Below are positions 17,303 through 58,424 of a stretch of 64,000 nt of DNA, piece by piece. Source of the DNA: an uncultured Verrucomicrobiota bacterium. GTDB lineage: Bacteria > Auribacterota > JABMQX01. Under the pieces are notes generated by a model. The model made no database searches. It worked only from the letters and a program-made list of their open reading frames with translations, and had not been told where the DNA came from. Every line of letters starts with the position of its first letter. Position 1 is the first letter of the stretch. The DNA lies in assembly GCA_964482435.1 (NCBI GenBank), contig CAYZXL010000010.1, positions 36,946-100,945 of the forward strand, given 5' to 3'. The translations under genes were made by a program, and so were the position numbers.

Positions 17303-18568
17303 ATGGTGCCTAAAAGGTTGGTGCTTTCATTCGTGGCAATGGTCGTCGCTGCTATTCTGATGCCGCTCTCCGAAGCGGAGGAGGCAGAGGAGGGGTTCAC
17401 GCGCATCTTCAACGGCAAGGATTTGAGTGGCTGGGACGGCGACCCGAGGTTGTGGTCGGTCAGAGACGGAGTGATTCGCGGCGAGACGACGCCGGAGAAA
17501 CTGGCATTGCGCAACACGTTTCTCATCTGGCGGGGTGGGACACTGCGCGATTTTGAACTGCGGCTTTCGTTCCGAATCTCAAGCGGGAATTCCGGGGTTC
17601 AGGTAAGGAGCAAAGACCAGGGGGAGTGGCGCGTTACAGGGTATCAGGCGGAGGTCGTCCCGAGCAGAGCGCAGATGGGGCTTTTCTACGACGAGGGGGG
17701 ACGAGGGTTTCTGGCGAGACCCGGAGAGAGTGTGGCCATAAATGAGAAAGGTGAGATAAAGGCTGTCGGGTCGGTCGGAGACCTTGAGAAAATACAGAGT
17801 GTGTACAAGGAGAAAGATTGGAACGAGCTGGCTGTCGTTGCTCGCGGCAGCCACATGGCTCAGAAGATAAACGGAGTGGTGTTTTCGGAACTGACCGACG
17901 AGGATGAGAAGGGCCGCGCCCTTTCAGGGGTCCTTGCGTTGCAGATACACACCGGTCCGCCGATGCTCGTCGAGTTCAAGGACATTCGCATTAAGGCGCT
18001 CGACGAAAAGGTCGTCTCGCTGTTCAACGGGAAAGACCTGACGGGTTGGAGAATAGCGGAAACGTGGGATTTCGCAGGACACGGGAAGGTGCACGTCGAA
18101 GACGGGAAGATTGTGCTGCAAGAGGGACAGCCGATGACGGGGATCGCGTGGGCGGGGGATTTCCCGACGGAAAATTACGAGGTGAACCTCGAGGCAATGC
18201 GTGTGAGCGGCTACGACTTTTTCTGCGGGATGACTTTTCCCGTCGAGAAATGGTGGTGCACGCTGATCGTAGGCGGATGGGGCGGGATGGTGGTCGGGCT
18301 GTCAAATGTGGACGACCTGAATGCTTCGGAAAACAGCACGACGCGCGGGATGAGCTTTGAGACGAAAAAGTGGTATCAGATTCGGCTGCAAGTGACGAAA
18401 GAGAAGATCGAGGCCTGGATAGACGGGCAGAGGGTGATCAGTCAAGTGAGGAAAGGGCACACGTTCACTGTATGGGACGTGCAAAATCCTCTCAAGCCTT
18501 TTGGCGTGGCAACGTGGAACACGAGGGGCGCGCTCCGGAACTTCACCCTGCGGCGCCTTGGAGAATGA
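17303..18568 (+). CDS. secreted protein with two tandem DUF1080 (3-keto-disaccharide hydrolase-like, LamG fold) domains
   Basis: The signal peptide is followed by two copies of the FNGKDL(S/T)GW motif and downstream D-F-E-L-type beta-strands. Confidence 0.75.
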   Translation: MVPKRLVLSFVAMVVAAILMPLSEAEEAEEGFTRIFNGKDLSGWDGDPRLWSVRDGVIRGETTPEKLALRNTFLIWRGGTLRDFELRLSFRISSGNSGVQVRSKDQGEWRVTGYQAEVVPSRAQMGLFYDEGGRGFLARPGESVAINEKGEIKAVGSVGDLEKIQSVYKEKDWNELAVVARGSHMAQKINGVVFSELTDEDEKGRALSGVLALQIHTGPPMLVEFKDIRIKALDEKVVSLFNGKDLTGWRIAETWDFAGHGKVHVEDGKIVLQEGQPMTGIAWAGDFPTENYEVNLEAMRVSGYDFFCGMTFPVEKWWCTLIVGGWGGMVVGLSNVDDLNASENSTTRGMSFETKKWYQIRLQVTKEKIEAWIDGQRVISQVRKGHTFTVWDVQNPLKPFGVATWNTRGALRNFTLRRLGE

Positions 18569-18715
18569 GCCAGTTCCAGTTATGCAATTTCGTCCTCACG
18601 GCGCGCGGCGACGCTGAAAGGAAAGCCGACTCTTTTGTCATCGGCTTTGACCGATGGTCCGGAACGTGTAGGGCCGTGCGGCCACTCATCGCCCGACGAG
18701 GCCTCATCCCAATGG

Positions 18716-20023
18716 CTACAGTTTCCACCCCTCTCTGTATTGCCGCCGGATAAACTGATTCGCTTCGGGGCAGTTGGTCACTTTGAGGTTTTCTGCATCC
18801 CACTCGATTTTCTTTCCTGCGCGGATGGCGATGTTGCCGAGGAGAACCGCCTCGGTAATGGGGCCTGAATAAGAGAAGTCGGCCATGGCGGGCAGACCTC
18901 CCTTGCAGGCGAGAATCCACTCCTCGTGGTGGCCCGGCGAGCGAGGGATCGTCGGCTCCGGGCCTTTGAAGTTGCGGAAGTGCGATTCCGGCAGAAGCTT
19001 GAACTGGTCGGCGTGCCAATCTGGGGCGAGCATTTTGCCTTTTTCGCCGATGAGGAGGGCGCCATTGTCCGGGACGTCCTGACCGTTAGCAAGCTCCTTA
19101 GGAGGTTTCTTTCCCCCGTCGTACCATGTAAGTCTTACAGCCGGCAGACGACCGCGCGCGGGGAACTCAAAGCGGAGAATGGACCATTTGGGGGCGGTCT
19201 CAACATGAACGTCGGAGACCTCCGCCTCGACGCTGGTTGGCGCGCCGAGCTTCAGACCCCAGAACACGATATCCATGTTGTGGATGCCCATGTCACCGAT
19301 CGCCCCGGTGCCGAAATCCCACCAGCCGCGCCAATTGAAAGGGACATAGCACGGATGATAGGGCCGCGAGGGGGCTGGGCCGAGCCAGAGGTCCCAGTTG
19401 AGGTCCTTCGGCACGGGCGGGGTATCGGTCGGGCGGTCAATGCCCTGGGGCCAGATGGGCCTGTCAGACCAGGCGTGCACCTCGCGGACGGCTCCGATGG
19501 CTCCAGCATGGAGAAGCTCGACGGCGCGGCGATGACCATTGTACGAGTGGCCTTGAATGCCCATCTGCGTGGCGACCTTGCGTTCGGCCGCTGTCCTGGT
19601 CATGAGCCGGGCTTCGTAAACCGAGTGAGTCAGCGGCTTCTCGCAATAGACGTGCTTGCCGAGCTTCATGGCCATCATCGCAGCAGGCGCGTGGGTGTGA
19701 TCCGGAGTGGCGATGACAACGGCGTCTATCTCCTTTTCCTTCTCGAGCATTTTTCGGAAGTCAACGTGTCTTTTTGCCTTTGGAAAGCGCTTGACGGTCT
19801 GCGCGGCACGCTGCTCGTCAACGTCACAGAGAGCAACGACGTTTTCACTGCTGACACCAGCGATGTCGTCAGCTCCGCGTCCTCCGACGCCGATGCCGGC
19901 GATGTTGAGTTTCTCGTTAGGTGATTTCAGTTGTGTCCAGATGGTTCGCGGTGCCGCCCAAAACCCGGCGCCCGCAAGCGTTGTAGCCGCAAGGAACTCC
20001 CTACGCGTCATTCTGTGACTCAT
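18716..20023 (-). CDS. TAT-exported Gfo/Idh/MocA family oxidoreductase (glycoside 3-dehydrogenase-like)
   Basis: The twin-arginine signal is RREFLAATTLAGAG. It is followed by the Rossmann motif IAGIGVGGRG and the EKP motif of the Gfo/Idh/MocA family. Confidence 0.8.
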   Translation of the reverse strand: MSHRMTRREFLAATTLAGAGFWAAPRTIWTQLKSPNEKLNIAGIGVGGRGADDIAGVSSENVVALCDVDEQRAAQTVKRFPKAKRHVDFRKMLEKEKEIDAVVIATPDHTHAPAAMMAMKLGKHVYCEKPLTHSVYEARLMTRTAAERKVATQMGIQGHSYNGHRRAVELLHAGAIGAVREVHAWSDRPIWPQGIDRPTDTPPVPKDLNWDLWLGPAPSRPYHPCYVPFNWRGWWDFGTGAIGDMGIHNMDIVFWGLKLGAPTSVEAEVSDVHVETAPKWSILRFEFPARGRLPAVRLTWYDGGKKPPKELANGQDVPDNGALLIGEKGKMLAPDWHADQFKLLPESHFRNFKGPEPTIPRSPGHHEEWILACKGGLPAMADFSYSGPITEAVLLGNIAIRAGKKIEWDAENLKVTNCPEANQFIRRQYREGWKL

Positions 20024-20276: not shown

Positions 20277-21725
20277 ATGAAGCTGAGAGGTGGGTACAAC
20301 ATTTTGCTGAAGGGAAAGCCAGGCAGGGAGATGGAGTCGCTTCCTGAACCGCGCATGCTTTACTTGCCACTCAGAAGCAAGCGGTTCAACTTCTCGGAAA
20401 ACTGCGTGAGAGACGGAGAATGGGTAATCGCCGGTCAGGTCCTTGCGAGGGACCCGGCGAACCACTTGCTGCCACTGCTGGCGCCGAGGGCGGGGACAGC
20501 TCGGCTCGGGGCTGTCGCAGAGCATCTCATCCTGGAAGACATCGGCATGGCGCCGGAGGAACCGCGCCCTTCGGACGCGGAAGCCCCGCATGTTTCAACG
20601 GAGGTGCGGTCTGCCGACGAGAAGCGAGGCCAACTCCTGGAGCTTGGGGCGTGGCAGTTCGTGTGCGATGCGCAGACCGGTGAGCTGCCCGACCCATTTG
20701 GGACGCCGCGCGCAGTTATTGTCTCAAGTGTTCGGCTTGAGCCTTTTGTCGCCAGAGGGGACGTGCAGCTCTATGAGCAACTCCCGATTTTCGTTAGGGG
20801 GCTGGAGCATCTGCAGTCTCTCCTGGAGTATCAGCCGATGTATCTCGTTATGCCGGACACTGAGTCGGCGTTTGCCAGGCACGTGCGGGAGATGCTTCGC
20901 GGGTATGCATGGATAAAGCTGGTGGAGGTCCCGCTGCGCTATCCTTACGACGATTTCACGATTCTGGCGCGGGGTCTGGGATTGATGAAGGAGTCCGCAC
21001 CCAAAAAGGACGCTCAAAGCTCGTCCCCCATGGAGCCTTCGGTCAGCGGACCGAACGGGCCGGTGTGGGCGCTGCGGACGGAAGGGGCTCTGGCGATAGA
21101 CCGTGCGCTGACGCATTCTCTGCCATGCACGAGCAGAGTTGTTTCAGTCGGCGGGCCAGCGGTTGAGTCACCAACCCACATTAAGGCAATCCCCGGCTAT
21201 CCTCTCAAGGCGATCCTTGGTTCGCGTTTGTCCACGGGACGAGTCAGGGTGGTCAACGGCGGAGCGCTCACGGGCGAGATCATCGGGGAAGAGCAGCTTG
21301 GGCTGGACGTCGAGTGCTCCGGGCTAACGGTTCTTCCGGACGAGACCGAGAGGGAATTTTTAGGATTCGCGCGCCCGGGGTGGAGTCGGCGGTCGTATAG
21401 CCGGTGCTTTCCCGGTTCGCTCCGGCGGCCATTCGCCGAGCGTCTCACGACGGGGCTGCGTGGTGAACGACGAGCATGCATCTCGTGCAATTTCTGCGAA
21501 GAAGTGTGCCCGGCTGGCATTATGCCCCACCTGATTCACAAGTACCTTTATCAGGGCGCGCTCGAGGAGGCAGAGAGGGCGCGCGTGGACCTGTGCGTCG
21601 AATGCGGGCTGTGTTCGCTTGTGTGCCCGTCGAAGATCGAGCTTGTCAAGCAATTCTCTGAGGCGAAGGAGAGGATTCGGCGAGAGCTGGAGGAGGTCGC
21701 GGCGGGCCGGGAGGCGGAGAGATGA
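20277..21725 (+). CDS. nqrA: NqrA/RnfC-family subunit with a C-terminal 2x[4Fe-4S] ferredoxin motif
   Basis: It is the first gene of the six-gene operon. The C-terminus contains CISCNFCEEVCP and CVECGLCSLVCP (two CxxCxxCxxxCP motifs). No RnfC-type GGAGFP NADH-binding motif was seen. Confidence 0.7.
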   Translation: MKLRGGYNILLKGKPGREMESLPEPRMLYLPLRSKRFNFSENCVRDGEWVIAGQVLARDPANHLLPLLAPRAGTARLGAVAEHLILEDIGMAPEEPRPSDAEAPHVSTEVRSADEKRGQLLELGAWQFVCDAQTGELPDPFGTPRAVIVSSVRLEPFVARGDVQLYEQLPIFVRGLEHLQSLLEYQPMYLVMPDTESAFARHVREMLRGYAWIKLVEVPLRYPYDDFTILARGLGLMKESAPKKDAQSSSPMEPSVSGPNGPVWALRTEGALAIDRALTHSLPCTSRVVSVGGPAVESPTHIKAIPGYPLKAILGSRLSTGRVRVVNGGALTGEIIGEEQLGLDVECSGLTVLPDETEREFLGFARPGWSRRSYSRCFPGSLRRPFAERLTTGLRGERRACISCNFCEEVCPAGIMPHLIHKYLYQGALEEAERARVDLCVECGLCSLVCPSKIELVKQFSEAKERIRRELEEVAAGREAER

Positions 21726-24671: not shown

Positions 24672-24678
24672 GCGGCGT

Positions 24679-27753: not shown

Positions 27754-28026
27754 GGCAATTTCCTCCTGTGAGATATTAGGGTTTCCTTGAAGCCGCATCG
27801 CAACGGAAGACATCCTTGTCCAGTCGCTCGCGTAACGTTGCACGAGCCAAACTGCCGTAGCAGTATCTTAATACCCAGGTGCTGCGTCAAGGGCAAAACG
27901 AGCCTTGTTCCCGACGGGAAATGGCGAGACTCACGACGCCTTCGCCACTTCCACGACCGGCACGATGGCGGGAGAAGCGGTCTTTCCGATTGAGCGGCAT
28001 TGCGCAGTCATCCCGAGCGGGCGAGA

Positions 28027-38551: not shown

Positions 38552-41500
38552 ATGCCCGAGGAGCAACAAAAAGGACGGCAGAAACGCGCAGCTCAGAGGG
38601 AGGCATGGGGTATGGCGGCCCCAAGGTTTTCCAAAGGCGAGGCAGTTCGGTTCGGATGGAAGACGGCGAAGCGCAATGTGGGGTTTTTTGCGGGCCTCAC
38701 TATCTTAGTCGGGATCACCCACGTTACTCCCTGGCTTATCACGGCTGCGGCCCGACAGGATGCGGGGCTTCTCCCTCGTATTGTCAGCGTCGCTTCATGG
38801 CTACCACAAATCGTGGTGCAGATGGGGGTCATGAGAATCGCCTTAAGATTCTGCGACGGCGCGAGGGGCGCACTTAGCGATTTATTCTCCTGTTTTCCTC
38901 TGTACTTCAGATATGTACTTGGTTCGAATCTATACGCGCTGATATGTTTCGGGGTGCCGTTCTGGGCATATCTACTTAGTCCGATTCTACTCGTGGCGGC
39001 GCTTTTGTTATTTGCCATCCCCGGCATTATCTGGTCAATGAAATACCAGTTCTTTGGGTATTTCATCGTTGACAGGGGAGTCCCTGCCGTGAAAGCACTT
39101 CGCGCAAGCGCGAGGATCACCAGGGGCGCTAAGCGGGAGTTGTTCGAGTTCGCTATATTGCTCGTCCTTATCAACATTCTCGGGGCCCTGTGCCTGGGCA
39201 TCGGTCTCTTTGTGACGGTCCCGCTATCGCTGCTTGCTCATGCCTTCGTGTATCGAAAGTTGCTGGCGGCTACGGAAGGTGTTCGAACAGCAGAGACCCT
39301 TGAGGCCGTTCGACCCCGTGAATCAGTACTAAGAGTGCTCGGCTCGGTGCAGCTAACCGTCACGCTCTCGTTTCTCGTAGCCGTGGCGCTGATGGTTGCA
39401 ACCCTCATCGAGAATCAGGCTCAGGCTGGTCGCAATATTTACCATTCCTGGTGGTTTATTTCGCTGCTCGGGCTTTTCTGTCTCAATCTTCTTCTCTGCA
39501 CGGCAGGGCGATGGTCCTTCAGAGCGAAGAAGATCGGGATAACTGTTGCCCACGCAGGCGTCCTGGTCATGGTCGTCGGAGTGGTCATCGGCGCCATCTG
39601 GGGGCAGCGAGGCTCCGTTCAACTCTACATCGGCCAGGCGGACGATATTTGGTACCTCGAAAATAACAAGAAGATGAAGCTCCCCTTCGTCGTTTATCTC
39701 AAATACTTTAAGGTGCAACGCTATGTTCGTGAAAGGCTTGTGGTTTACGTGGTGGACCGCAACCTCGTCCGCTCTTTCCCGATGGAAGTCGGCAAGAGCT
39801 TCAGGGTTGCCGGGACGCCGTATTCCGTGACGACCCTGCGCTACGAGCCAGACTTCGTTGTTCTCGGCAAAGGGGGTTTCGGGAGCCGCTCCAGCGAGCC
39901 AAAAAATCCAGCAGTCCAGGTTCGCGTCGAGGACGGGTCAGACAACAAGACACTGTGGGTCTTCGCAAAAGCCCCCGGCATGCACCAGGACCCGGATTCC
40001 AACGTCCGCCTCCTTTATCAGCGGGTCGAAGAAAGGATCAAGAATTTCAAATCAAAGGTCCTGCTCCTGGGCGAGAAGGTCGTCCTTGTCGTGGATGACA
40101 GGCCCGTGGAGACGGGGTACTGGGGGCTCAGTCACCCTGTTTTCAGTCCGGATGGCAGGCACGTCGCATACAAGGGTTCGGGTACAGACGGCGCATGGGA
40201 GTGCGTAGTAGTGGACGGACAGCCCGGACCGAGATACGAAGCGCTTGGCCCCAGGCCTCCCGTGTTTCATGGGGACGGTACCCTGGAATATCTGGCCTTC
40301 GGAGACGGGGTGGTCTACCGCGTTAAACACATCCCGCAAGCTAAGAGCCCGCCGGAAAAGAGGTCTCCACCCGTCGGCAAGGAAACTGGCACCGGACGCC
40401 GCAGCATTTTTGAGGAACGTACTACTCCGCCCGTCACCTCCTCGCAAAGAACAGCGCCCCTCGCTAGCAAAACAACCCCTACCCGCCGGTCGAGCCTCTT
40501 CCATGACGAGCCCACTTCCGGCCGCACCGTTGCCGTCGCACAGGCCGCGTACCAGGTCGAGGAGGAGAAGGTCGGGACAATTGACCGCTCGGCATTTGAC
40601 CACGCCAAGTTCAGCGGGGATGGATTGCACATCGCCTACCGGGTGGACAAGGATGGTAGGTGGATGGTCGCATTGGATGGGAAGGCAGGCCCCGACTTCC
40701 AATGTGCCGGACTCTCGGGGGAGTATTTCTGTGAGCGGCTTTTAGCCCTCAGTTCGGACGCAAAGCGGTTGGCGTACGCCGCCGTGGAGGCTGGCAAGAC
40801 ATTCGTGGTTATGGACGGCAGGCCGGGACCCGCGTATGACGACGTTCAGGACGTCACCCTCAGCGCGGATGGAAGGCGTGTCGCATATGTCGCCAAGAGG
40901 GGCAACAAGTCGTTCGTGGTCGTTGATGAGCAAGCCGGCCCAGAGCTCGACGAGATTAGAGACCCGGCCTTCAGTCCCGACGGGGCGCGATTTGCCTACA
41001 AGGGCAGAGTGCTGGGCGAGCAGACATACGTACTCGCCGTGGACGGCAGACCAAGGCCTGAGCTGGGCGCTGTTTCTGATTTTGTCTTCAGCCCCGACGG
41101 AAAACGAATGGCGTATGTGGCCGAGAAAAATTCCAACCGGTTTGTGGTACTCGATGGACAAGGCGGTCCGGAGTTCAGCAACATCGAGGATTTGATGTTT
41201 AGCGCGGACGGCAAGCGCTTCGCGTACGTCGGTGAGCGTGTAAGTAAAGGTGCGAGAGAAACGATCCTGGTTGTGGATGGGACTTTGATACGGGGCGTCG
41301 GCGTTTACCCCCGGCAAACCTTCAGCGCGGATGGTAAGCGCCTGGCCTACGCAGCCCCCAGCGGCGACGGGTGTCGTGTCATGCTGGACGGCAAGCCGGG
41401 CCCTGTGTATTTTGACGTGCTGGACCTCACTTTCAGTCCTGACGGGAGGCGACTCGCGTACTGCGCCAGAGAGATCCTCGCCTCCAAGACGATTGAAGTC

Positions 41501-41737
41501 AACAAGCCCTTGAGATACCAGGGCTTTTCGATGTATCAATCAGCCTACGATGAGCAGCGCGAAATGTTTTCCGTTCTTGGCATAGTCAAAGACCCCGGCC
41601 TCCCTCTCGTCTATATCGGGTTCGCGGTGATTTCGGCAGGAGTCCTCTTCAACTTCTATCTGCGCCCCATCTTGACGGGGAAAGCACGGGGAACAGCGAC
41701 CCAGAAGGCGCACGCCAGCGGAAGAAACACTGACTGA
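38552..41737 (+). CDS. resB: ResB/CcsB-like cytochrome c biogenesis protein with an N-terminal DUF975-like membrane domain and a PD40-type beta-propeller periplasmic domain
   Basis: Residues 1 to about 265 form a four-TM domain with FGWKTAKRNVGFF. Around residues 280 to 330 is a ResB N-motif (IYHSWWFISLLGLFCLNLLLC). Residues from about 530 to 970 carry at least eight FSPDG[KR]R[FLMV]AY repeats, and the ResB C-terminal region reads MYQSAYDEQREMFSVLGIVKDPGLPLVYIGFAVISAGVLFNFYL. Confidence 0.65.
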   Translation: MPEEQQKGRQKRAAQREAWGMAAPRFSKGEAVRFGWKTAKRNVGFFAGLTILVGITHVTPWLITAAARQDAGLLPRIVSVASWLPQIVVQMGVMRIALRFCDGARGALSDLFSCFPLYFRYVLGSNLYALICFGVPFWAYLLSPILLVAALLLFAIPGIIWSMKYQFFGYFIVDRGVPAVKALRASARITRGAKRELFEFAILLVLINILGALCLGIGLFVTVPLSLLAHAFVYRKLLAATEGVRTAETLEAVRPRESVLRVLGSVQLTVTLSFLVAVALMVATLIENQAQAGRNIYHSWWFISLLGLFCLNLLLCTAGRWSFRAKKIGITVAHAGVLVMVVGVVIGAIWGQRGSVQLYIGQADDIWYLENNKKMKLPFVVYLKYFKVQRYVRERLVVYVVDRNLVRSFPMEVGKSFRVAGTPYSVTTLRYEPDFVVLGKGGFGSRSSEPKNPAVQVRVEDGSDNKTLWVFAKAPGMHQDPDSNVRLLYQRVEERIKNFKSKVLLLGEKVVLVVDDRPVETGYWGLSHPVFSPDGRHVAYKGSGTDGAWECVVVDGQPGPRYEALGPRPPVFHGDGTLEYLAFGDGVVYRVKHIPQAKSPPEKRSPPVGKETGTGRRSIFEERTTPPVTSSQRTAPLASKTTPTRRSSLFHDEPTSGRTVAVAQAAYQVEEEKVGTIDRSAFDHAKFSGDGLHIAYRVDKDGRWMVALDGKAGPDFQCAGLSGEYFCERLLALSSDAKRLAYAAVEAGKTFVVMDGRPGPAYDDVQDVTLSADGRRVAYVAKRGNKSFVVVDEQAGPELDEIRDPAFSPDGARFAYKGRVLGEQTYVLAVDGRPRPELGAVSDFVFSPDGKRMAYVAEKNSNRFVVLDGQGGPEFSNIEDLMFSADGKRFAYVGERVSKGARETILVVDGTLIRGVGVYPRQTFSADGKRLAYAAPSGDGCRVMLDGKPGPVYFDVLDLTFSPDGRRLAYCAREILASKTIEVNKPLRYQGFSMYQSAYDEQREMFSVLGIVKDPGLPLVYIGFAVISAGVLFNFYLRPILTGKARGTATQKAHASGRNTD

Positions 41738-41747
41738 AAAGGGAGCC

Positions 41748-42740
41748 ATGTCACCCACAAGATTATTCTTCACCTGTGCCGAAGTAGCCTATTTCTTAGC
41801 GGGTGTGACTTTCGTAATTTACTACCTGAGCCGCAAGAGTGGCTTTCGGGTCGTTGCGATTTCTCTTCTGGTCGTCGGCGCGCTGTCCCAGGCCCTTTTC
41901 GTCGCCTGGCGATGGGGGGAAGCAGGACGCCCCCCGTTCGCCAATACGTTTGAAACGCTCGTGTTCTTCAGCCTGGTCATCGCGGTAGTCTGCATTGTCC
42001 TGGAGCTGCTTTATTCACCGAAGATTGTCGGGGCGGGCGGCGCGCTCCTCGCCCTCTTAGCCGTCGGGTACGCGAACCTGTTTGAGTGGCAAATCGAGCC
42101 CCTTATGCCCGCCCTGCAAAACAACTTCTGGTTGACCCTCCACGTCGTCTTCTGCTTCATCAGCTACGGCTCTTTCGCGGTATCTTTCGTGGCGGCTCTC
42201 ATTTTCCTTGTGATGCACGGCGGCGTCTTGCGAAAGATTTCGGCGTTTCTGGTATCTCTTTGCGTCGTGGGGCTTGTCGGTGGCCTGTTCTACGGGTTGG
42301 CGCTGCTGGGAATGGGTATCGCAGCCGCCGTGGCCGGAGGAGTTGTCGTGGCGGGGTTGATCTCACTCGCCCTGACATCCATTCTGACAAAGAAAGGAGT
42401 CACGGCCGAAGGAAGAACCAGCGTTCTCTCGGACCTGGTATGGAAGATGGTCGCGTTCGGCTTTCCGTTTCTCACTCTCGGAATCATGACTGGCTCGGTC
42501 TGGGCGAGCGTCGCTTGGGGGAGGTACTGGGGATGGGACCCGAAGGAAACGTGGTCGCTGATTACCTGGCTCGTTTACGCATTTTTCCTTCACGTGCGAT
42601 TCTCCGGCGGGCTGTTCGGCCTGAAGGCAAAATCGCTCCCGCAACTCCAGGCGATTCTCTCGGCGATTGGTTTCCTCTTCGTCCTTTTCACCTACTTCGG
42701 GGTCAACTACCTCCTGTCCGGCCTCCACGCCTACACATAA
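41748..42740 (+). CDS. ccsA: cytochrome c-type biogenesis protein CcsA/ResC (heme-handling WWD protein)
   Basis: The protein has the Trp-rich WWD motif WGRYWGWDPKETWSLITW and eight predicted TM helices. Confidence 0.85.
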   Translation: MSPTRLFFTCAEVAYFLAGVTFVIYYLSRKSGFRVVAISLLVVGALSQALFVAWRWGEAGRPPFANTFETLVFFSLVIAVVCIVLELLYSPKIVGAGGALLALLAVGYANLFEWQIEPLMPALQNNFWLTLHVVFCFISYGSFAVSFVAALIFLVMHGGVLRKISAFLVSLCVVGLVGGLFYGLALLGMGIAAAVAGGVVVAGLISLALTSILTKKGVTAEGRTSVLSDLVWKMVAFGFPFLTLGIMTGSVWASVAWGRYWGWDPKETWSLITWLVYAFFLHVRFSGGLFGLKAKSLPQLQAILSAIGFLFVLFTYFGVNYLLSGLHAYT

Positions 42741-49592: not shown

Positions 49593-49764
49593 CGCCGCCC
49601 GGAATCTTCTCCCCATCGCACGTCGCTTCCCGTCACAGACACGCACAGGGGGCGCAGGTGAATTGTCTATTGAAGGGGGAACCTCCGCCTCGTATGATGC
49701 TGTTTACGACGCAAGAGAGATTGCCCGAGCTGTTCGCTGAGCATTTCTATACGAAAGGGTTGCT

Positions 49765-50748
49765 ATGAAGACACGCAAACTCGGTAGCTCGGACATCGAG
49801 GTTTCCGTCATTGGGCTTGGTTGCTGGGCCATGGGCGGATGGATGTGGGGCGGGACAGACGACGAGAAAGCTATCGCCGCCATTCACAAAGCTCTTGACA
49901 TCGGAATGACTCTGCTCGATACCGCGCCCGTGTACGGATTCGGCTATTCGGAAGAAATTGTCGGCAAGGCCATCCAGGGGCGTCGAAGCGAGGTCATTCT
50001 GGCGACGAAATGCGGGTTGGTCTGGGACCACCCCACAGGACAGCTTTCCATGGTTGATAAAGAAGGGCGAAAGATTTACAGAGACCTTACGAAGAAAAGT
50101 GTTCTACGGGAGGCCGAGGACAGTCTTCGCCGCCTGAAAACTGACTGGATTGATATTTACCAGTGCCATCGCCCCGACGACCTGACACCAGCCGAGGAGA
50201 CGATGGAAGCCCTGAACCTCCTCTTGAAGCAGGGAAAGATTCGAGCGATTGGCGTGAGCAACTTCTCCGTCGAGCAGATGGAGGATTTTCGACGATACGG
50301 CCCCGTCCACTCCGACCAGCCGAGGTACAGCATGCTCGACCGAGAAATCGAGCGGGAGATTCTCCCGTTCTGCCGAAAGAACAATATCGGAATCCTCGCT
50401 TACAGCCCGCTGGAGCAGGGCATCCTCACCGGCAAGGTCACGCCTGACCGCAAATTCCCGCCGAACGACTACAGAGGCGACAGGCCGTGGTTTCAGGAGA
50501 ACAATCTGAGGCGAGCGCTCGATTTCTTAGATAAGCTCAAGCCCATCGCCGCTAACCACGGTAAGAGCCTCGCGCAGCTCGGCATCAATTGGGTCATCTG
50601 CCAGGATGAGTTGATGGTGCCGCTCGTCGGCGCGCGAACGCCGGAGCAGGTCCTGGAAAACGCGGGCGCCGCCGATTGGCGGCTGAGGAACGATGAACTG
50701 AAGCTCATTGAACAGTACGTCGAGGACTTAGGGCCACCGGAGGAGTAG
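49765..50748 (+). CDS. cytoplasmic aldo/keto reductase
   Basis: The N-terminus MKTRKLGSSDIEVSVIGLGCWAMGG has no signal peptide. The AKR catalytic residues are in typical positions (D..Y..K..H). Confidence 0.8.
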   Translation: MKTRKLGSSDIEVSVIGLGCWAMGGWMWGGTDDEKAIAAIHKALDIGMTLLDTAPVYGFGYSEEIVGKAIQGRRSEVILATKCGLVWDHPTGQLSMVDKEGRKIYRDLTKKSVLREAEDSLRRLKTDWIDIYQCHRPDDLTPAEETMEALNLLLKQGKIRAIGVSNFSVEQMEDFRRYGPVHSDQPRYSMLDREIEREILPFCRKNNIGILAYSPLEQGILTGKVTPDRKFPPNDYRGDRPWFQENNLRRALDFLDKLKPIAANHGKSLAQLGINWVICQDELMVPLVGARTPEQVLENAGAADWRLRNDELKLIEQYVEDLGPPEE

Positions 50749-51816: not shown

Positions 51817-52632
51817 TCAGGAACGCCGAGCGGGAGTTGTTGGCGGGGTTTGGGCTTTCTGGGCGGGGGCGCGACCGGCAGCCCAGCCAATCGCGTTGGA
51901 GAGGAGCTTTCGGTAATTCGCGTCCTTGAAAGCGCTCGCGCCGTGACCAAACTGAATGTACACAACGGGCGCCTTCCCGCAGAGTTGCGTCCAGGCGATG
52001 ACCTTTTCGCTAAGCGGATGCTCCACCGTGAGGAGAGGCTTGACTTCGGGGCGAACGGTAAACTTATTGTAAACCTCGTCAACAATTTCAAACTCTGAAA
52101 TCCTCAGCCCTTGCGCGATCGGGTGGCTCTTGTCGGCAACCTGCACCTTGAGTTTCTCGTCGTGCTTATAGCCCGACGTCGGGTGCTTCACGCCGTCTTC
52201 TTCCCGGGCGGCTGTATAGAATTTCCCTCCGATGATTTTCTGGAAATCCGGCCAGTCCTGGTACGAGCCGAGGCAATGGTGCAGACCCACCAACCCTTTT
52301 CCGGAGCTGAGGTACATGACAAGTTTCTGCTTCTGGGCATCCGTGATTTTCTGCACCATGTCGTACAGGACAATCACGTCGTACTTCGCCAGGTCTCTAT
52401 CGTACGCTTCGCTGGTCTCCTTTTGCTCGGCGGTCTCGACCACAATTCCGTCGAGAGCCTTGAACATCGCAAAGAACGGCTCCTGCTCGAAATCATGCCC
52501 GCCAGTCACGACGAGAACCTTGATTTTCTCCGCGGGAGCGCTCGGCGCCGCGCATTGAACCGCAGCTGCAAGAATTGCGGCAAGCCCGAATACACAGATT
52601 AACGTCACCAACCCAACCCAATTTCGCTTCAC
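51817..52632 (-). CDS. secreted ThuA-like (trehalose-utilisation ThuA family) protein
   Basis: The signal peptide is followed by ThuA hallmarks KVLVVTGGHDFE, LAKYDVIVLYD, GKGLVGLHH, GGKF and HPIAQGL. Confidence 0.7.
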   Translation of the reverse strand: MKRNWVGLVTLICVFGLAAILAAAVQCAAPSAPAEKIKVLVVTGGHDFEQEPFFAMFKALDGIVVETAEQKETSEAYDRDLAKYDVIVLYDMVQKITDAQKQKLVMYLSSGKGLVGLHHCLGSYQDWPDFQKIIGGKFYTAAREEDGVKHPTSGYKHDEKLKVQVADKSHPIAQGLRISEFEIVDEVYNKFTVRPEVKPLLTVEHPLSEKVIAWTQLCGKAPVVYIQFGHGASAFKDANYRKLLSNAIGWAAGRAPAQKAQTPPTTPARRS

Positions 52633-52851: not shown

Positions 52852-55575
52852 TCAGTCCTGGCAGACGCGGTAGAAGCGGCATTTGACGGCGGCAGCGGGA
52901 GGGGAGGTTGGATTATTTTTCTCGTCGGGAGAGTCGAGCCATTGGATGATGCTGCCGTCTCCGAGGAAAGCCGGGCCGCAGGGTTTCCAGTCGGTGGTTT
53001 CATTGAGACCGTCGTCGGTGTACTCAATCTGGTAGCGGACACCTTGAATCGTTGGTCCGAAGGCGACGGCGATTGAGGAGGTGCTGACGGTGATGGTGAG
53101 TTGCAGTGGCGGAAACGGCTCCTCCTCGCGGAGCAGAAGCGTGAGGTCATCCCAGGCGGCGTTCGCGGGAGAGCTGAACACGTCGCGGGCGAGCATCCAG
53201 AACCGGACGGATTTTGTGCCAGCAGGGACGCGATTGCTGGAGGACAATTTCATCCACTCGCCGATTACCCCGGAGTAAAGTTGCCGTCGTTCGAGAACGG
53301 TGTTGCTGGCATCGAGAAATTCAATTGCTATCAAAGGGACAACGGACTCCGTCTGGCCTGTTCGGATGACATGGCCTCCCCAATCGGCGACAATCTTTTT
53401 TTGCGGCGAATCAATCGCTTCTGAAAAAGCCGAAACGTCCACGTCCTGATAAGCTCCGAGGAGGTAGGTCTCGTTCACCAGGTTGTTTGTTTCGCGGTCG
53501 AATCTCCCCGAGGTCTGGTCTGCCCAGAAAGCCCACTTCCCCTGGACGCTCCAGCCGTCAGCGACGGCAATGAACAGGTCGTTGTCGAAGGAGTAGCGGT
53601 TGGCGGGGTCGGGTGGGAAAGTAGTGCTGGCGTTGGTCCAGTGGCAGAGGGATTGTTCTTCGGCATCGGAGTTGAGGAGAAGGTTGCGTGTTTGATCGCC
53701 CGCAGCGCCGGCGACGGTTTCGGACGGCAGCCCTTCGAGATCGGCGTCCACTGCTGTTACGTAATACGAACAACTGGTCCCTTCGACCAGGTTGAGGTCG
53801 AGGTAACGTGGTTGTGGCACCCGAGAAGGGGTGATTTTGACGAAGGGTGCATCGCCTACCTTCCTGTAAATCAAATAGCCGAGGACATCGGCTTCGGGAT
53901 TGGGTTCCCAGGCGAGGGCGATTCCTCCGAGGGTCGGCTCGGCGGAAAGACCGAAGACCTTTTTCGGGGGGATGCCGGCAGGGGCGGTGGTCTGGACTTC
54001 GGGCGACGGGTCGCTCTCTACGGGACCATATCCAGGAGCGAAGGAGCGGACCATGTAGGTGTACGTCTTGCCTTCTGCGGTGGATTCGTCAGTCCAAGAG
54101 GTCGCGGCGACGTCGGCGACTTTCTCGAAAGGCTCGGAGCCGGTTCGGCGGTAGATGTTGTAGCCGGCTGGCAAGACTCCTCCGGACGGGGGATCCCAGG
54201 AGAGCGCGATGCTTTGCTCGCCGGGAGAAACGGAAGCTGAGAGATTCGACGGCGGGTCCGGCTTGGGGACGAAATTCCATTGATATACGACAACCTCCCC
54301 GGACTTCAGAGAGATGTAGAAGCGGTTGCGGTAGCCCTTGATTGACTGAATTTGCTCTCCGTCTCCGATGCTCACGCTAAAGAGCACCTGCGGTTCGCTC
54401 GTCTTATCGGCGAGGTCGAGCACGAGAAGCTCGTCTCCCCCTACCTCGGCAGTGACGAGGTGCGTCTCATCGTGGGTCAAAACGGACGGAAGGAGCGGAT
54501 TGGACGAGATGCGGCTTCCCGGCTCATCGCCGTTCCCGTTCCAGTTGATGGGCGAGCCGAGGAACTCAGGAGCCGCACCGTCGGTGGGCATGTCGGCATT
54601 CCAGAGTAAATAGGAGCCGTCAGCGGCCACGACTTGCCGGATGCGAACAAACCAGTGGTCCGCTGGATGCATGGACGCGACCCGCTCGATCAACCACTTC
54701 CCATCGCCGGTTATGATGTCGGGCGAGACTCGCGAACGCCAGTCGCCCGAGCAGCGCGACCAGTACCGAAACGCCTCAATGGGGTCTCGCGAAAAATCCA
54801 GCATCGCTTCCGCTCCGTCCTGCCCTCCGCACCAGAGCAAATCGCGGCTCGGGTCGTAAACCTGCCCGTAAATCGTCGAGAACCCCCCGATGCCTTCCTT
54901 CACGACGGACATCTTCCGGGTGACGGAGTTGATCGAAAGCAAGTAGATTCCCTCGCCGAAAAAGACTTTGTGGCCGCCAGAGGGGTCATCGGCGTGCCCG
55001 CCGGTTCTCATGGCAGCGGCGATCATTGAGCCGCCCTTGACGAAAATGGGAGGGGATGTGGTCAAGGGATTCTCAAATTGAGCACCCGGAAATTGAAGAT
55101 TCGGGGGATAGGCAGAGTCGAGCAATTGGAATTGGTCACCGCTGACGTCAATCAGGAATATCTTTGTTCCGCAGCCGCCTCCGACGACAACTCTCTCAAA
55201 ACACGGGTCGAAAGAGATTCCGAAGGCGCCATCCTCGCCGTAAGGCATCCCTTCAAATTCCTGCTGGGCGAGGGAGCGGATTTGGGAGGGGTCTGTGACG
55301 TCGAGGATGTCGAGGCAGGCTGCCCCGCCAGGGGAGGACTCGCTCACAACGTAGAGGCGAGTGCCGTCGGCGTTGAGGGCGAGATTGTACGCACCTCCGG
55401 GCCCGGGGTCAAACTCGCCGCAGAAATCGAAACGCTCGACATTCAATCCTCCCGACGGAGTGTCAGATATGCCGGAGCTGGTGCGGGAGCGCGATTCTCC
55501 GGCAACGCGCCAAGCGCACGGGAACACGAGGAGACAACAAAGACACACAGCAAAACTGGATAGCCGTGGACGCAT
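52852..55575 (-). CDS. large secreted protein with a beta-propeller-like N-terminal region, two fibronectin type III domains and a C-terminal domain of unknown function
   Basis: The start at 55575 is followed by signal peptide MRPRLSSFAVCLCCLLVFPCAWRVAG. The two FN3 units are ...PPSNLSASVSPGEQSIALSWDPP...YTYMV... and ...PPKKVFGLSAEPTLGGIALAWEP...YYVTAVD... Confidence 0.5.
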   Translation of the reverse strand: MRPRLSSFAVCLCCLLVFPCAWRVAGESRSRTSSGISDTPSGGLNVERFDFCGEFDPGPGGAYNLALNADGTRLYVVSESSPGGAACLDILDVTDPSQIRSLAQQEFEGMPYGEDGAFGISFDPCFERVVVGGGCGTKIFLIDVSGDQFQLLDSAYPPNLQFPGAQFENPLTTSPPIFVKGGSMIAAAMRTGGHADDPSGGHKVFFGEGIYLLSINSVTRKMSVVKEGIGGFSTIYGQVYDPSRDLLWCGGQDGAEAMLDFSRDPIEAFRYWSRCSGDWRSRVSPDIITGDGKWLIERVASMHPADHWFVRIRQVVAADGSYLLWNADMPTDGAAPEFLGSPINWNGNGDEPGSRISSNPLLPSVLTHDETHLVTAEVGGDELLVLDLADKTSEPQVLFSVSIGDGEQIQSIKGYRNRFYISLKSGEVVVYQWNFVPKPDPPSNLSASVSPGEQSIALSWDPPSGGVLPAGYNIYRRTGSEPFEKVADVAATSWTDESTAEGKTYTYMVRSFAPGYGPVESDPSPEVQTTAPAGIPPKKVFGLSAEPTLGGIALAWEPNPEADVLGYLIYRKVGDAPFVKITPSRVPQPRYLDLNLVEGTSCSYYVTAVDADLEGLPSETVAGAAGDQTRNLLLNSDAEEQSLCHWTNASTTFPPDPANRYSFDNDLFIAVADGWSVQGKWAFWADQTSGRFDRETNNLVNETYLLGAYQDVDVSAFSEAIDSPQKKIVADWGGHVIRTGQTESVVPLIAIEFLDASNTVLERRQLYSGVIGEWMKLSSSNRVPAGTKSVRFWMLARDVFSSPANAAWDDLTLLLREEEPFPPLQLTITVSTSSIAVAFGPTIQGVRYQIEYTDDGLNETTDWKPCGPAFLGDGSIIQWLDSPDEKNNPTSPPAAAVKCRFYRVCQD

Positions 55576-55973
55576 GACACCCCCCCGGTGAGACTTCCAA
55601 GCCGCGACATTTCTCGAGTTATCGTATAGCAAATCGGAAAAAGCAAGTCAACAAACCCCGAAAGTTTTCAGGTAGTGCGTTAGTCCTCCGCGGCTATGGT
55701 CGTGTCGCCCGCGAGGAACAAAGCCTCTACCTCCGTAGTGCCTGTCCAATGCCGCTCGTCAAATCACGACAAGGCGATAATTCACCCCGGGCGCGCCCCC
55801 GAAATGCAGTCACGGCCCTTCAGCGTGAGTCATTGGTTCACGAAGAACCGACATCGGGGCGTACAGACGCTCATTGCCCTCACGGCCGCCACGCAATCCA
55901 GACAAAGCGCCGTTGGCACCTTATGAACCGAATTGCCGACGGGAAGGCTCAGCCCTGTCGGAGTCGCGCCTCC

Positions 55974-57296
55974 TCACAACGGCCGTATCTGGATGTTGCG
56001 GTAGATGGCTTTTGCCTTTATACCTTCCGCTTGGCCGCCGCCGTGAACCTGGACGGCGATGCCACCTTTTTCGGGGATGCGAACCTCCTTGTCCTCGTAA
56101 TCAATCATGTGGACGCCGTTCATAAAGACGGTGATTTTGGGCGGCTGGCCGGAAATCTTGATGCGGAAAATGTTCCAGTCGTCCTTCTTCCACGCGGCAG
56201 GATATTGCTCTGACCGCGCTCCGAAGCCGCCAATCCCCTCGCCGTAGATTCCGCCGACGTTGCCCCCTTCGTGATAATCCACCATGACCTGATAGGCTTT
56301 CCCGGTCTCTGTCGAGCGAAGGAATATTCCGCTGTCAATTCCCCACTCCGGTTTCGCCTCGATGACTAACTCGAAATCACCATACTCCTTGTCGGTGATG
56401 AGAATGCCGCCCTGACGAGGCGGATTCTGCTGGCCGACGATGGTACCGTTCTCGACCACCCATTTCCCGCCAGTGCCGTGTCCTGTGGTGCGGCTGACAT
56501 GCCAACCGTTGAGGGTTTTTCCGTCGAAAATCGGGGTGAAGCCCGCAACGTAATCGGGAACGGGCTTGCCCGCGGCCCAGAGCGTTGCACGGATGAGGAA
56601 AGTCTTGAAGATGTCCTGCTGGCAGGCTTTGGGGTCGTGCCCAAATCCCATGTAGAAGACTCGTCCCTTCCCAGACGATTTCGTCCAGGCGATGGGGAGG
56701 TCCTTCCCCTCGTGCGCGGCGGTCGCGAGGATGTGAATCTCAGGGTCGTCCTGCTGGAGGATGTACTGCTCGTCCGTGATGTTGAAGTCAATCAGCCCTC
56801 TCGTTAGAGGGTTTTCCTTGTCCACAACCTTCACGGCGAATTCCCGGTAAGCCGGGTGCGTGAGGAAATGCCCGCCGACGAACTTCCGATATTCTTCGTC
56901 CTCGCGGAACGAATCGCCGGCCGAATGGAAGCCAACGTAGCCCTTGCCGCTGGCGACGAAATCGAAAAGCCCTTTCTTCTGTTCAGGAGTAATCGTTCCG
57001 ACGGTGTAGTAAAAGACAATCACGTCGTAGGGGTCGAGCTTGGGGGAGATGAGAGCGTTGAGGTCCTCCTCGATTTTTGTAACCTCGAACTGCCCGAACT
57101 CCTTCAGCGTCTTCTCGACCTCATTCCCGATCCCCTTGTAGTCGTGGATGGTCCCACCGGCGAAGACGAGGACTTTCGTCTTCGAACTCGGCGCTTGCGC
57201 AGCGGTTGGCGTCAAAAAGTCCACACAGAAAGCCACAGTCGTTACGGTCAGCAAAAGTGCTCCCAAACAAGCGCACGTGAGAAAACGGTTCTTCAT
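55974..57296 (-). CDS. secreted ThuA-like domain fused to a DUF1080 (3-keto-disaccharide hydrolase-like) domain
   Basis: The N-terminal ThuA half has KVLVFAGGTIHDY, DPYDVIVFYY and GKGYVGFHSA. The C-terminal half has the DUF1080 motifs FDGKTLNGWH, YGDFELVIE and IAVQVHGG. Confidence 0.7.
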   Translation of the reverse strand: MKNRFLTCACLGALLLTVTTVAFCVDFLTPTAAQAPSSKTKVLVFAGGTIHDYKGIGNEVEKTLKEFGQFEVTKIEEDLNALISPKLDPYDVIVFYYTVGTITPEQKKGLFDFVASGKGYVGFHSAGDSFREDEEYRKFVGGHFLTHPAYREFAVKVVDKENPLTRGLIDFNITDEQYILQQDDPEIHILATAAHEGKDLPIAWTKSSGKGRVFYMGFGHDPKACQQDIFKTFLIRATLWAAGKPVPDYVAGFTPIFDGKTLNGWHVSRTTGHGTGGKWVVENGTIVGQQNPPRQGGILITDKEYGDFELVIEAKPEWGIDSGIFLRSTETGKAYQVMVDYHEGGNVGGIYGEGIGGFGARSEQYPAAWKKDDWNIFRIKISGQPPKITVFMNGVHMIDYEDKEVRIPEKGGIAVQVHGGGQAEGIKAKAIYRNIQIRPL

Positions 57297-57458
57297 GGTT
57301 GCCTCCTTGTTTTGGCTGCCTATCGCATCATCCTTCGCGGAAACGACTTGAAGGAACGCGGCTGCGTTCCCTCAGTTCTGCGAGCCATTCCGTCGAGGGC
57401 AAATAACAGTGATTCCGCGATTGCTCCGGCGTTGCCCGCCACTCCCTGGTGGAAAACC

Positions 57459-58424
57459 TCATGCCTTTTGCTCGGCGATAACCTTGTTGAGGTGCTTGAG
57501 ACTCCTCTCAGCCTGCTCGACCGTCCCGCACTCGACGGAAAGGACGCCGTTAAAGCCCGCTTTCTTCAGAATCTTGACGATGCGCGTCCAGTCAATGACC
57601 CCGTCGCCGCAGGCGCAGCCGACGGCGGTCCCGGTCACCTTCCCTCTCTCGTCCTTGCTCTGCTGTAGCTCGATGTCCTTAGCATGCATGTGGAATGTGC
57701 GGCCGGCAATTGCCTCCAGCATCTCGTAAGGGTCGCTCACTCCGCCGAGGTAGGCGTTCCCGGAATCGAAATTGAACCCGACGTTGGGGGATGGCACGAG
57801 GTTGGCGATTTTGATTATCTTATCGGTGTAAACGCTGAATTTCTGATGCGGCTCAATCCCGATTTTGACATTGTGTCGCTCGGCAACCGGAACGATGCAC
57901 TTCAGGGTGTAGTGCATAATCTTGAAGGCTGTGTCCTCATCCATCCATTCGGGAATCATCCCCTCGTCGGTGTTGCAGACGGGCGCGCCAAGTTCCGCCG
58001 CGAAGCGAATCGCCTGCTTGATATACTCTACGGAGATTTCCGGTCTTGCTAAAGGACTGTGGCAGGACAAGCCGCTCGCCTGAATGCGATGTTTCTGGAG
58101 AATGTCTCGAATCTCAAGGGGGTCTTCGCTCATCGAGATGGTGTGGTAATAGCCCGCCTCGCTCATAAGCTCGCGGCCCCAGTGCACCATCGGCTCGCAG
58201 AACTTGTATCCGATCTCGGCGGCCTTTGCGACTCCCCACTTGAAAGGCTTCTCAGCCCTTCGTATGAACTCCATATTGATGCCCGGTTTCATGCCCATGG
58301 CAACCCCTCCTTTCTCAGAATCCTCTGCGTTCGCGGTCTCGGTACGGGCGGCGAGAAGCGCCGCCGCGCCGATCAAAGAACTGTCTTTCAGGAATTCTCT
58401 TCTGGTGATGTCCTTTTGTGCCAT
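57459..58424 (-). CDS. TAT-exported sugar phosphate isomerase/epimerase (xylose isomerase-like TIM barrel) family protein
   Basis: The start at 58424 has a GAGGAGG RBS and a twin-arginine signal MAQKDITRREFLKDSSLIGAAALLAA. A TIM-barrel metal-binding His/Asp/Glu pattern follows (EPH, HAKD). Confidence 0.6.
   Translation of the reverse strand: MAQKDITRREFLKDSSLIGAAALLAARTETANAEDSEKGGVAMGMKPGINMEFIRRAEKPFKWGVAKAAEIGYKFCEPMVHWGRELMSEAGYYHTISMSEDPLEIRDILQKHRIQASGLSCHSPLARPEISVEYIKQAIRFAAELGAPVCNTDEGMIPEWMDEDTAFKIMHYTLKCIVPVAERHNVKIGIEPHQKFSVYTDKIIKIANLVPSPNVGFNFDSGNAYLGGVSDPYEMLEAIAGRTFHMHAKDIELQQSKDERGKVTGTAVGCACGDGVIDWTRIVKILKKAGFNGVLSVECGTVEQAERSLKHLNKVIAEQKA

Follow-up and report, generated by a model that had tools for sequence, protein, structure and literature searches.

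Two candidate loci for periplasmic sugar chemistry in an uncultured Verrucomicrobiota bacterium, one of them with a conserved pair of genes for an exported aldo/keto reductase-fold protein and a tetrahaem cytochrome

Does a stretch of 64,000 nucleotides from an uncultured Verrucomicrobiota bacterium (the window: contig CAYZXL010000010.1, positions 36,946 to 100,945) encode one periplasmic pathway that cleaves glycosides by oxidation at C3? That glycosides can be cleaved oxidatively, by a non-Koshland route, is a recent discovery made in gut Bacteroidota. The AL/BT pathway (BT2156-BT2160) of Alistipes and Bacteroides thetaiotaomicron oxidises, eliminates and hydrates glycosides (bioRxiv 10.1101/2024.03.25.586180; Liu et al., PMC8121099). 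What re-oxidises the dehydrogenase in the periplasm is not yet settled; Nasseri et al. (bioRxiv 10.1101/2024.03.25.586180) suggested that cytochromes might do so. The original prediction, made from the sequence of the window, gathered six gene types into a dispersed pathway of this kind with direct cytochrome coupling, and the literature on 3-keto glycosides that it invoked is real. We found these genes in two separate loci, A (17.3-20.0 kb) and B (49.8-63.7 kb), with about 30-32 kb between them. The loci are not linked within the window and the gene set is not one cluster. The conserved unit of locus B is a pair of genes, the first for an aldo/keto reductase (AKR)-like protein exported by twin-arginine translocation (TAT) and the second for a tetrahaem cytochrome c. 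With moderate confidence, we read the window as two independent loci for periplasmic sugar or keto-sugar chemistry, locus B being built on an AKR-like/cytochrome module that would couple sugar redox to electron transfer.

The pair is present twice in locus B, as the following four genes:

59659..60804, plus strand: AKRtat1, TAT-exported AKR-fold protein (PF00248, 52 bits; TAT signal, 26.1 bits)
60833..61888, plus strand: tetrahaem cytochrome c-DUF1080 fusion, Sec-exported (four CxxCH motifs; DUF1080, 116 bits)
62015..63106, plus strand: AKRtat2, TAT-exported AKR-fold protein (PF00248, 77 bits)
63223..63723, plus strand: small tetrahaem cytochrome c of 166 aa (four CxxCH motifs; Cytochrome_C7, Paired_CXXCH_1)

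AKRtat1 is followed by the cytochrome-DUF1080 gene after a 28-bp gap, and AKRtat2, 40% identical to AKRtat1, is followed by the small cytochrome. The fusion of cytochrome c and DUF1080 had been predicted without coordinates and does exist, beyond position 58424, where the predicted set ended. The two AKR-like genes and the second cytochrome were absent from that set, as were a cytoplasmic AKR and a ResB/CcsA pair described below.

About 60 full-length homologues of the cytochrome-DUF1080 protein were recovered, at 33-84% identity. The AKR-like gene lay directly upstream of the cytochrome gene in eight of nine genome loci: L004, L008, L010, L011 (Pirellulales), L012 (Sedimentisphaerales), L032, L068 (Planctomycetaceae) and L074 (Verrucomicrobia). 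L006 was the only cytochrome locus without it. As controls we took 74 cytochrome-free loci, almost all of them with DUF1080 only, from a scan of genome contigs with the cytochrome-DUF1080 profile, which returned mostly plain DUF1080 loci. None of these had the AKR-like gene (0 of 74 vs 8 of 9; Fisher P = 2e-10). Anchoring on the AKR-like gene in metagenomes gave 67 loci with enough sequence around it. The cytochrome was directly downstream in 56 of them and was a DUF1080 fusion in at least 45 of these; counted by clusters at 90% identity, 39 had the cytochrome and 12 did not. These metagenome loci showed no conserved neighbour of the AKR-like gene besides the cytochrome.

The pairing is far beyond chance and it is paralogue-specific, AKRtat1-type genes preceding cytochrome-DUF1080 genes and AKRtat2-type genes preceding short cytochromes (L010, L068 and L074). 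A literature search found no description of a system combining AKR, TAT export and a cytochrome, nor of DUF1080 with a cytochrome, and the module is apparently undescribed. Two further arrangements were recorded downstream of cytochrome-DUF1080 genes. A stand-alone DUF1080 gene (about 215-245 aa) directly follows in L099:2498-3142, L116:8349-9089 and L140:2973-3704, and a small tetrahaem cytochrome follows in L008:4461-4919, L104:8531-8968 and L123:3275-3610, giving one AKR-like gene with two cytochromes.

Some modules do adjoin genes of the other families found in the window. In L074, a metagenome-assembled genome of Verrucomicrobia, positions 6638-15139 hold one same-strand array of a xylose-isomerase-like TIM barrel (XI-TIM), the AKR-like protein, a tetrahaem cytochrome, ThuA, a second XI-TIM, an AL3-like Gfo/Idh/MocA oxidoreductase (Gfo; 5e-90) and a sugar transporter of the major facilitator superfamily. 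It brings together, in an operon-like arrangement, the families that are scattered in the window. The AKR-like gene adjoins an AL3-like TAT-exported Gfo in L156, precedes a gene for a 657-aa DUF1080 protein without cytochrome in L162, and lies about 9 kb from a close XI-TIM orthologue in L032.

The AKR-like family, assembled from metagenome sequences, is large and strongly conserved: at 90% identity it forms over 4000 clusters, at 50% identity (E <= 1e-30) only about 124. Typical members are 52-60% identical to AKRtat1. The twin-arginine motif is invariant across the family alignment. At the extreme C-terminus lies a near-invariant aromatic tail (LPxEYxWLRDWExV), which canonical AKRs lack and which may serve in docking. 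An AlphaFold2 model of AKRtat1 (predicted local distance difference test 79.5) showed the AKR (beta/alpha)8 barrel, and Foldseek matched it with probability 1.0 to AKR11C1, L-galactose dehydrogenase and AKR14A1 (template modelling scores 0.52-0.72). The catalytic tetrad D-Y-K-H was mapped by hhalign profile alignment against the window's own canonical AKR, with conservation taken from the family alignments. Of the four residues only Asp remains, as Asp115: the loop that would carry Tyr is deleted, and Asp141 and Gln180 stand in place of Lys and His. His73, Asp141, Arg178, His217 and Arg219 are invariant in the family. The protein is thus AKR-fold but not a canonical AKR. The profile alignment also showed that GK and PG...E..N segments are retained, which we take to be the motifs of the AKR nucleotide-binding (cofactor) region. 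A database protein of 775 aa, P0493, has two AKR-type domains and a C-terminal 4Fe-4S dicluster domain; it shows only that related barrels can join electron-transfer modules.

The haem region of the cytochrome-DUF1080 protein has four invariant CxxCH motifs and four further invariant histidines among 32 aligned homologues, a pattern that indicates a tetrahaem bis-histidine cytochrome. Matches to Pfam Cytochrome_C7, Cytochrom_c3_2 and Paired_CXXCH_1 in the window cytochromes were near or above cut-off, and these proteins resemble electron carriers of the c3/c7 and NrfB/DmsE types.

Three window proteins carry DUF1080 (PF06439, 114-165 bits). The domain alignment separated two sequence subtypes. 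All three intact domains in the window show NSG ... YQx(E/D) ... QxH, and the other subtype, to which BT2157/AL2 apparently belong, has EYQ(L)ID ... LQDHG. Candidate orthologues from Bacteroidales loci proved to belong to this other subtype. BT2157, AL2 and BT2 were compared with the window domains by single-sequence and profile alignments. The active-site list of BT2 is Glu103, Asn134, Glu164, Gln166, Tyr190, Lys245, Gln273 and His275. Read by motif, the window domains have NSG, YQ and QxH, with Glu164 apparently replaced and an acid two positions after the Gln instead. NSG, YQxD and QxH are retained in the cytochrome-fused domain, and on a reading of motifs rather than of aligned residues they would be Asn134, Gln166 and Gln273/His275 of BT2. 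Foldseek with a model of this domain gave BT3469 (4jqt, uncharacterised) as the best match, with BT2157, AL2 and BT2 at E ~1e-10. Catalytic competence of the window DUF1080 domains is plausible.

The remaining genes of locus B are as follows:

49765..50748, plus strand: canonical cytoplasmic aldo/keto reductase (PF00248, 256 bits; no signal peptide)
51817..52632, minus strand: ThuA-domain protein, Sec-exported (PF06283, 115 bits)
52852..55632, minus strand: secreted fn3 protein of 926 aa (fn3 the sole domain detected with Pfam)
55974..57296, minus strand: ThuA-DUF1080 fusion, Sec-exported (ThuA, 151 bits; DUF1080, 114 bits)
57459..58424, minus strand: xylose-isomerase-like (XI-TIM) barrel, TAT-exported (PF01261, 115 bits; TIGR01409, 21.2 bits)
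58864-59598, plus strand: open reading frame (ORF) of 244 aa

The minus-strand genes read in the order XI-TIM, ThuA-DUF1080, fn3 protein and ThuA, and on the plus strand the 244-aa ORF precedes the two AKR-like/cytochrome pairs. Two related metagenome contigs, L004 (cytochrome 68% identical to that of the window) and L090 (AKR-like protein 92% identical), retain a block of cytoplasmic AKR, ThuA, ThuA-DUF1080 and XI-TIM, followed by AKRtat1, cytochrome-DUF1080 and AKRtat2. Differences from the window lie in the left flank of this block and in the gene that separates the two ThuA genes. Both contigs have an orthologue of the cytoplasmic AKR, a possible keto-sugar reductase, at the same edge of the block, and both keep the ThuA protein. 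The ThuA-DUF1080 fusion has its orthologue in L004 at a phmmer E-value of 2e-241, and in the window the XI-TIM gene lies 162 bp upstream of the fusion gene. The slot of the fn3 protein is variable, with no homologue detected there in L090 and an unrelated 466-aa gene in L004. The fn3 protein, a lineage-specific insertion, was not conserved and was rejected as probably not part of the system; the 244-aa ORF, also not conserved, was rejected as well. In other lineages, ThuA-DUF1080 fusions (L173:1756-2847 and L174:2588-3658) are each followed by a DUF4185 protein, a recurrent second pairing.

The XI-like barrel has a TAT signal above the cut-off (TIGR01409, 21.2 against 16.7 bits). Its best NCBIfam match, IolE, was far under cut-off at 48 bits, and judged by sequence the barrel is no near relative of AL1/BT1, the characterised lyases. 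No gene of the Gfo/ThuB type adjoins either ThuA gene; the sole Gfo among the window ORFs scanned is about 32 kb away. Two database proteins join the families by fusion, P0359 with XI-TIM and DUF1080, and P0301 with DUF1080 and ThuA.

Locus A consists of two convergent genes:

17303..18568, plus strand: tandem DUF1080 protein, Sec-exported (2x PF06439, 165 bits)
18716..20023, minus strand: Gfo/Idh/MocA oxidoreductase, TAT-exported (PF01408 and PF19051, a C2-type C-terminal domain)

In a sequence search, the Gfo protein matched PDB entries 8tdf (E 1.7e-108) and 8tdh (E 3.2e-107), structures deposited with the study of Nasseri et al. (bioRxiv 10.1101/2024.03.25.586180). Over 384 residues, covering 34-421 of 435, it shares 46.6% identity with AL3, a glycoside 3-dehydrogenase of solved structure. 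The HMMER alignment, from which the numbering offset was deduced, shows identity at five of the six sugar-binding residues of AL3 listed by Nasseri et al. (Gln161, Arg192, Trp195, Asp248 and His252). The sixth, Tyr349, a contact to OH-2, is Trp, and the substrate range of the window protein is probably altered. The NCBIfam model BT_2158_fam (NF058561, "glycoside 3-dehydrogenase") matched end-to-end at 482 bits, below its equivalog cut-off of 750 bits; the protein is a clear homologue but not a curated equivalog. The match began at position 1 of the profile, and the N-terminus, MSHRMTRREFLAATTLAGAGFWAAP (MSHRMTRREFL), contains the twin-arginine motif TRREFL. We regard the protein as a candidate glycoside 3-dehydrogenase of the AL3/BT_2158 type. 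In its neighbour, the N-terminal DUF1080 copy has the full motif set and the C-terminal copy is degenerate, lacking NSG, YQxE/D and QxH; orthologues of this tandem protein are known at 57-74% identity. The convergent pair also occurs in L170 (60% identity), in different surroundings. A Gfo gene was found within 10 kb of DUF1080 in roughly a third of the approximately 74 DUF1080-anchored control genome loci, in agreement with the published Gfo-DUF1080 association.

All six gene types named by the original prediction are therefore present with their Pfam domains. ORF listing and the Pfam scan confirmed the tandem DUF1080, Gfo, ThuA, ThuA-DUF1080 and XI-like proteins at their predicted places. 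Profile annotation upheld the DUF1080, ThuA and Gfo/Idh/MocA assignments, and TAT export was borne out for Gfo and for the XI-like barrel. Each of these proteins, like the cytochrome c-DUF1080 fusion, has a Sec or TAT signal, which predicts a periplasmic location. The closest named homologues are from Candidatus Sumerlaeota/Sumerlaeia and Planctomycetota. No NCBIfam model matched the window's DUF1080, ThuA, fn3 or 244-aa proteins, and promoter and terminator scans of loci A and B gave counts near those of shuffled sequence, which are uninformative on operons. Three DUF1080 genes in 64 kb have a Poisson P of 3e-4 to 0.03 at assumed densities of 2-10 per Mb. This enrichment is no more than suggestive, because the densities were chosen in view of Planctomycete counts (9 and 17 DUF1080 genes per genome) and not for this genome, and windows were pre-selected.

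The known systems nearest to these loci differ from them in several respects. Like the AL/BT pathway, the window has periplasmic proteins, a TAT-exported Gfo/Idh/MocA 3-dehydrogenase candidate, a DUF1080 partner and a xylose-isomerase-like barrel. Unlike it, the genes do not form one operon, the DUF1080 domains are of a different sequence subtype from BT2157/AL2, the barrel is no near relative of AL1/BT1, a SusR-type regulator is lacking in the window, and there are additional ThuA, AKR-like and tetrahaem cytochrome components. The BT version of the pathway is redox-neutral through bound nicotinamide adenine dinucleotide (NAD) and has no cytochrome. The glycoside 3-dehydrogenase of the LacABC type, with DUF1080 nearby (Caulobacter CCNA_01705; Price et al., PMC9007349), shares the logic of dehydrogenase, cytochrome and DUF1080: its periplasmic dehydrogenase is described as cytochrome c-dependent, with DUF1080 encoded next door. 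However, the window has an AKR-fold protein instead of LacA, a soluble tetrahaem cytochrome that is fused to DUF1080, and no LacC-type small subunit that we could see. ThuAB, the trehalose 3-dehydrogenase of rhizobia (cited in PMC8121099), has in common with the window the ThuA domain (PF06283), found twice there, but the window ThuA genes lack an adjoining Gfo/ThuB gene and encode secreted proteins, one of them fused to DUF1080. Glucose-fructose oxidoreductase of Zymomonas (PMC8121099) is a precedent for sending a folded sugar oxidoreductase, its nicotinamide tightly bound, through the TAT system, although its fold is Rossmann and not AKR, it works by ping-pong between two sugars and it has no cytochrome partner. 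The module is a variant of the dehydrogenase, cytochrome and DUF1080 logic of LacABC and the AL/BT pathway.

An architecture like that of the module is found in sulfate reducers, where TAT-exported periplasmic hydrogenase or formate dehydrogenase is served by a small, Sec-exported tetrahaem bis-histidine cytochrome c3 as dedicated carrier. Those enzymes have metal and iron-sulfur centres for one-electron transfer, and none are evident in the AKR-like protein.

The predicted glycoside C3-oxidation pathway was thus sustained in part. The identity of Gfo to AL3, the fusions P0359 and P0301, the block in L004 and L090 and the L074 array speak for it, whereas the two unlinked loci, the missing ThuB partner, the distance of the barrel from AL1/BT1 and the DUF1080 subtype do not. 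Coupling to a cytochrome was borne out as conserved gene pairing, but the conserved partner is the AKR-like protein and not Gfo or ThuA. Likewise, co-localisation in related genomes was seen for the locus B block and for L074, but not for locus A in most contexts or for most of the modules, as set out below.

In the model that we favour, the AL3/BT_2158-type dehydrogenase of locus A would be exported by TAT, probably with bound NAD, and would oxidise a glycoside at C3; the adjoining secreted DUF1080 protein would eliminate or hydrate the 3-keto product. At the core of locus B, the AKR-fold protein would be exported folded via TAT, followed by the Sec-exported tetrahaem cytochrome c of the bis-histidine type. 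The AKR-like protein would oxidise or reduce a putative sugar or keto-sugar substrate in the periplasm. Through a presumed cofactor and contact with its dedicated cytochrome, it would exchange electrons, in either direction, with a periplasmic electron-transfer chain. The DUF1080 domain tethered to the cytochrome may bind or convert the keto-sugar at the same complex, and the TAT-exported XI-like barrel, ThuA-DUF1080 and ThuA may add further steps of lyase or isomerase type. Going further, we tentatively raise the possibility, itself doubtful, that TAT-exported AKR-fold proteins without the classical tetrad are a new class of periplasmic carbohydrate oxidoreductase. Each would have a dedicated tetrahaem cytochrome c, with fused DUF1080 channelling the keto-sugar, and glycoside cleavage in bacteria of the Planctomycetes-Verrucomicrobia-Chlamydiae (PVC) type and their relatives would be respiration-coupled rather than redox-neutral.

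Several findings weigh against a role in sugar oxidation. The AKR-like/cytochrome modules mostly occur by themselves, with no other sugar genes around them. Among 115 distinct ORFs neighbouring the modules and classified with Pfam, Gfo was found in 3, and neither ThuA nor XI-TIM was among the 25 commonest neighbour families. The adjacency of Gfo and tandem DUF1080 was not found in L171, L172, L175 and L176, and is kept in one of five distant orthologue contexts. Five PDB sequences matched the XI-like barrel at E <= 1e-3, the best being MJ1311 (3.6e-13), then 3tva, and none was named as a lyase or as AL1/BT1 (presuming that AL1/BT1 are deposited). ThuA is without a biochemically defined role, and a literature search on its biochemistry found nothing relevant. 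One explanation would be a background rich in paralogues: DUF1080, Gfo/Idh/MocA, ThuA and XI-like families are heavily expanded in PVC-type genomes, and their co-occurrence in 64 kb may be coincidental. The genes would then serve unrelated polysaccharide tasks, with DUF1080 acting, for example, as endo-glycanases of the xanthanase or lichenase type. We consider this unlikely, but it has to be reckoned with. Planctomycetes are enriched in DUF1080 genes (T. terrifontis has 9, and L. roseus 17 together with 33 of PF01408), and one DUF1080 protein, THTE_1561, has been cited as having endo-xanthanase/lichenase activity. The 30 kb of unrelated genes between the loci, the rarely kept adjacency of locus A and the ThuA-DUF1080 fusions that elsewhere adjoin DUF4185 instead of XI-TIM also fit a coincidental set. 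Coincidence does not readily account for L004, which keeps the locus B block despite its different left flank, or for L074, where the same families stand with a sugar transporter in another phylum. Nor does it explain why XI-TIM, DUF1080 and ThuA are joined by domain fusions and why the AKR-like gene is paired with a cytochrome so far beyond chance.

The solitary modules bear also on a different proposal, that the AKR-like/cytochrome pair is a redox system apart from glycoside cleavage, for aldehyde or quinone detoxification in the periplasm or extracellular electron transfer, with DUF1080 as a lectin-like glycan anchor. The short cytochrome partners are entirely without DUF1080, and the c3/c7- and NrfB/DmsE-like character of the cytochromes would suit such a system. 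The window DUF1080 domains aligned with 3osd, 8tda and 8v31 over only the N-terminal 75-80 residues or so, a third of the domain, stopping after NSG. The DUF1080 model was as similar (E ~1e-10) to the non-catalytic CBM66 as to BT2/AL2 and also matched L-type lectins, and the DUF1080 and CBM66 definitions overlap. This proposal nevertheless seems to us distinctly unlikely, since the cytochrome-fused domain keeps the motifs read above as BT2 active-site residues, and since AKR-like genes occur near AL3-like Gfo (L074 and L156), near XI-TIM (L004, L090 and L074, with L032 at the distance given) and beside a cytochrome-free DUF1080 gene (L162). A last difficulty concerns the AKR-like protein itself, which lacks the catalytic Tyr, Lys and His and so may be no oxidoreductase at all. 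An iron-sulfur or flavin site was considered and rejected, there being no conserved Cys or flavin motif, and we know of no enzyme that transfers electrons directly from bound nicotinamide to haem. The cofactor is therefore the main gap in the electron-transfer model. The protein could instead be a metal- or acid/base-dependent isomerase, epimerase or lyase on a TIM barrel, exported by TAT for cofactor loading, and the cytochrome would serve another dehydrogenase, such as an AL3-type Gfo. The invariant residues that replace the AKR triad agree with this, and there is precedent for export of a metal-loaded TIM barrel, as members of the AL cluster have export signals and AL1/BT1 bind Co2+. We rate a non-redox function as very unlikely, because such tight, paralogue-specific pairing with the cytochrome alone would scarcely be expected if the two proteins had no direct functional contact and because what we assume to be nucleotide-binding motifs are kept. 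On balance, we retain the reading of two loci for sugar or keto-sugar chemistry, with the module at the centre of locus B.

The interval of 20-49.7 kb between the loci holds an Rnf/Nqr-like cluster, an ADP-ribosylglycohydrolase, a glycosyltransferase/methyltransferase cluster, ResB/CcsA and an efflux system (TetR, TolC, membrane fusion protein and AcrB). One gene pair in it relates to cytochromes:

38552..42740, plus strand: ResB (PD40-fused) and CcsA, system II cytochrome c maturation (Pfam ResB, PD40; Cytochrom_C_asm, 129 bits)

These proteins are required by any c-type cytochrome, and the pair is accessory and not specific to the sugar genes. The ResB-like protein (38552-41737, 1061 aa) is joined to PD40/WD40-like beta-propeller repeats, a fusion unusual for system II. 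The hybrid Rnf/Nqr-like cluster (20277-25767) is divergent from the Gfo gene. Its first subunit has NqrA-like domains with a 4Fe-4S dicluster domain (RnfC-like) and its last is NqrF-like, with 2Fe-2S, flavin adenine dinucleotide and NAD domains. The protein of the ADP-ribosylglycohydrolase family (26488-27843) has an N-terminal hydrophobic segment suggesting export, which is unusual for the family. A P-II family gene of 97 aa, called in identical Logan contigs, directly follows the AcrB gene (~49300-49600), an odd place for a nitrogen-signalling protein. Ahead of locus A, a long run of minus-strand genes (4162-12736) resembles a V/A-type ATPase operon, in which subunit A (6213-8048) is identified only by the name that a source gives to a near-identical cluster member; a ParB-like gene, read from translation only, follows it.

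The AKR-like protein with the tetrahaem cytochrome-DUF1080 protein is a concrete, clonable candidate for the cytochrome coupling of periplasmic sugar oxidation. Even if the proposed function is not true, the label "aldo/keto reductase" on thousands of database entries would still be misleading, because the catalytic tetrad is absent from this family. If it is true, no earlier AKR-fold enzyme would have been connected to electron transfer through haem, and the AKR fold would have a new catalytic use. Sugar oxidation would be tied to periplasmic electron transport, and oxidative glycan breakdown would reach uncultured Planctomycetota, Verrucomicrobiota and their relatives; the PVC-type and related bacteria that carry the module are apparently common in sediments.

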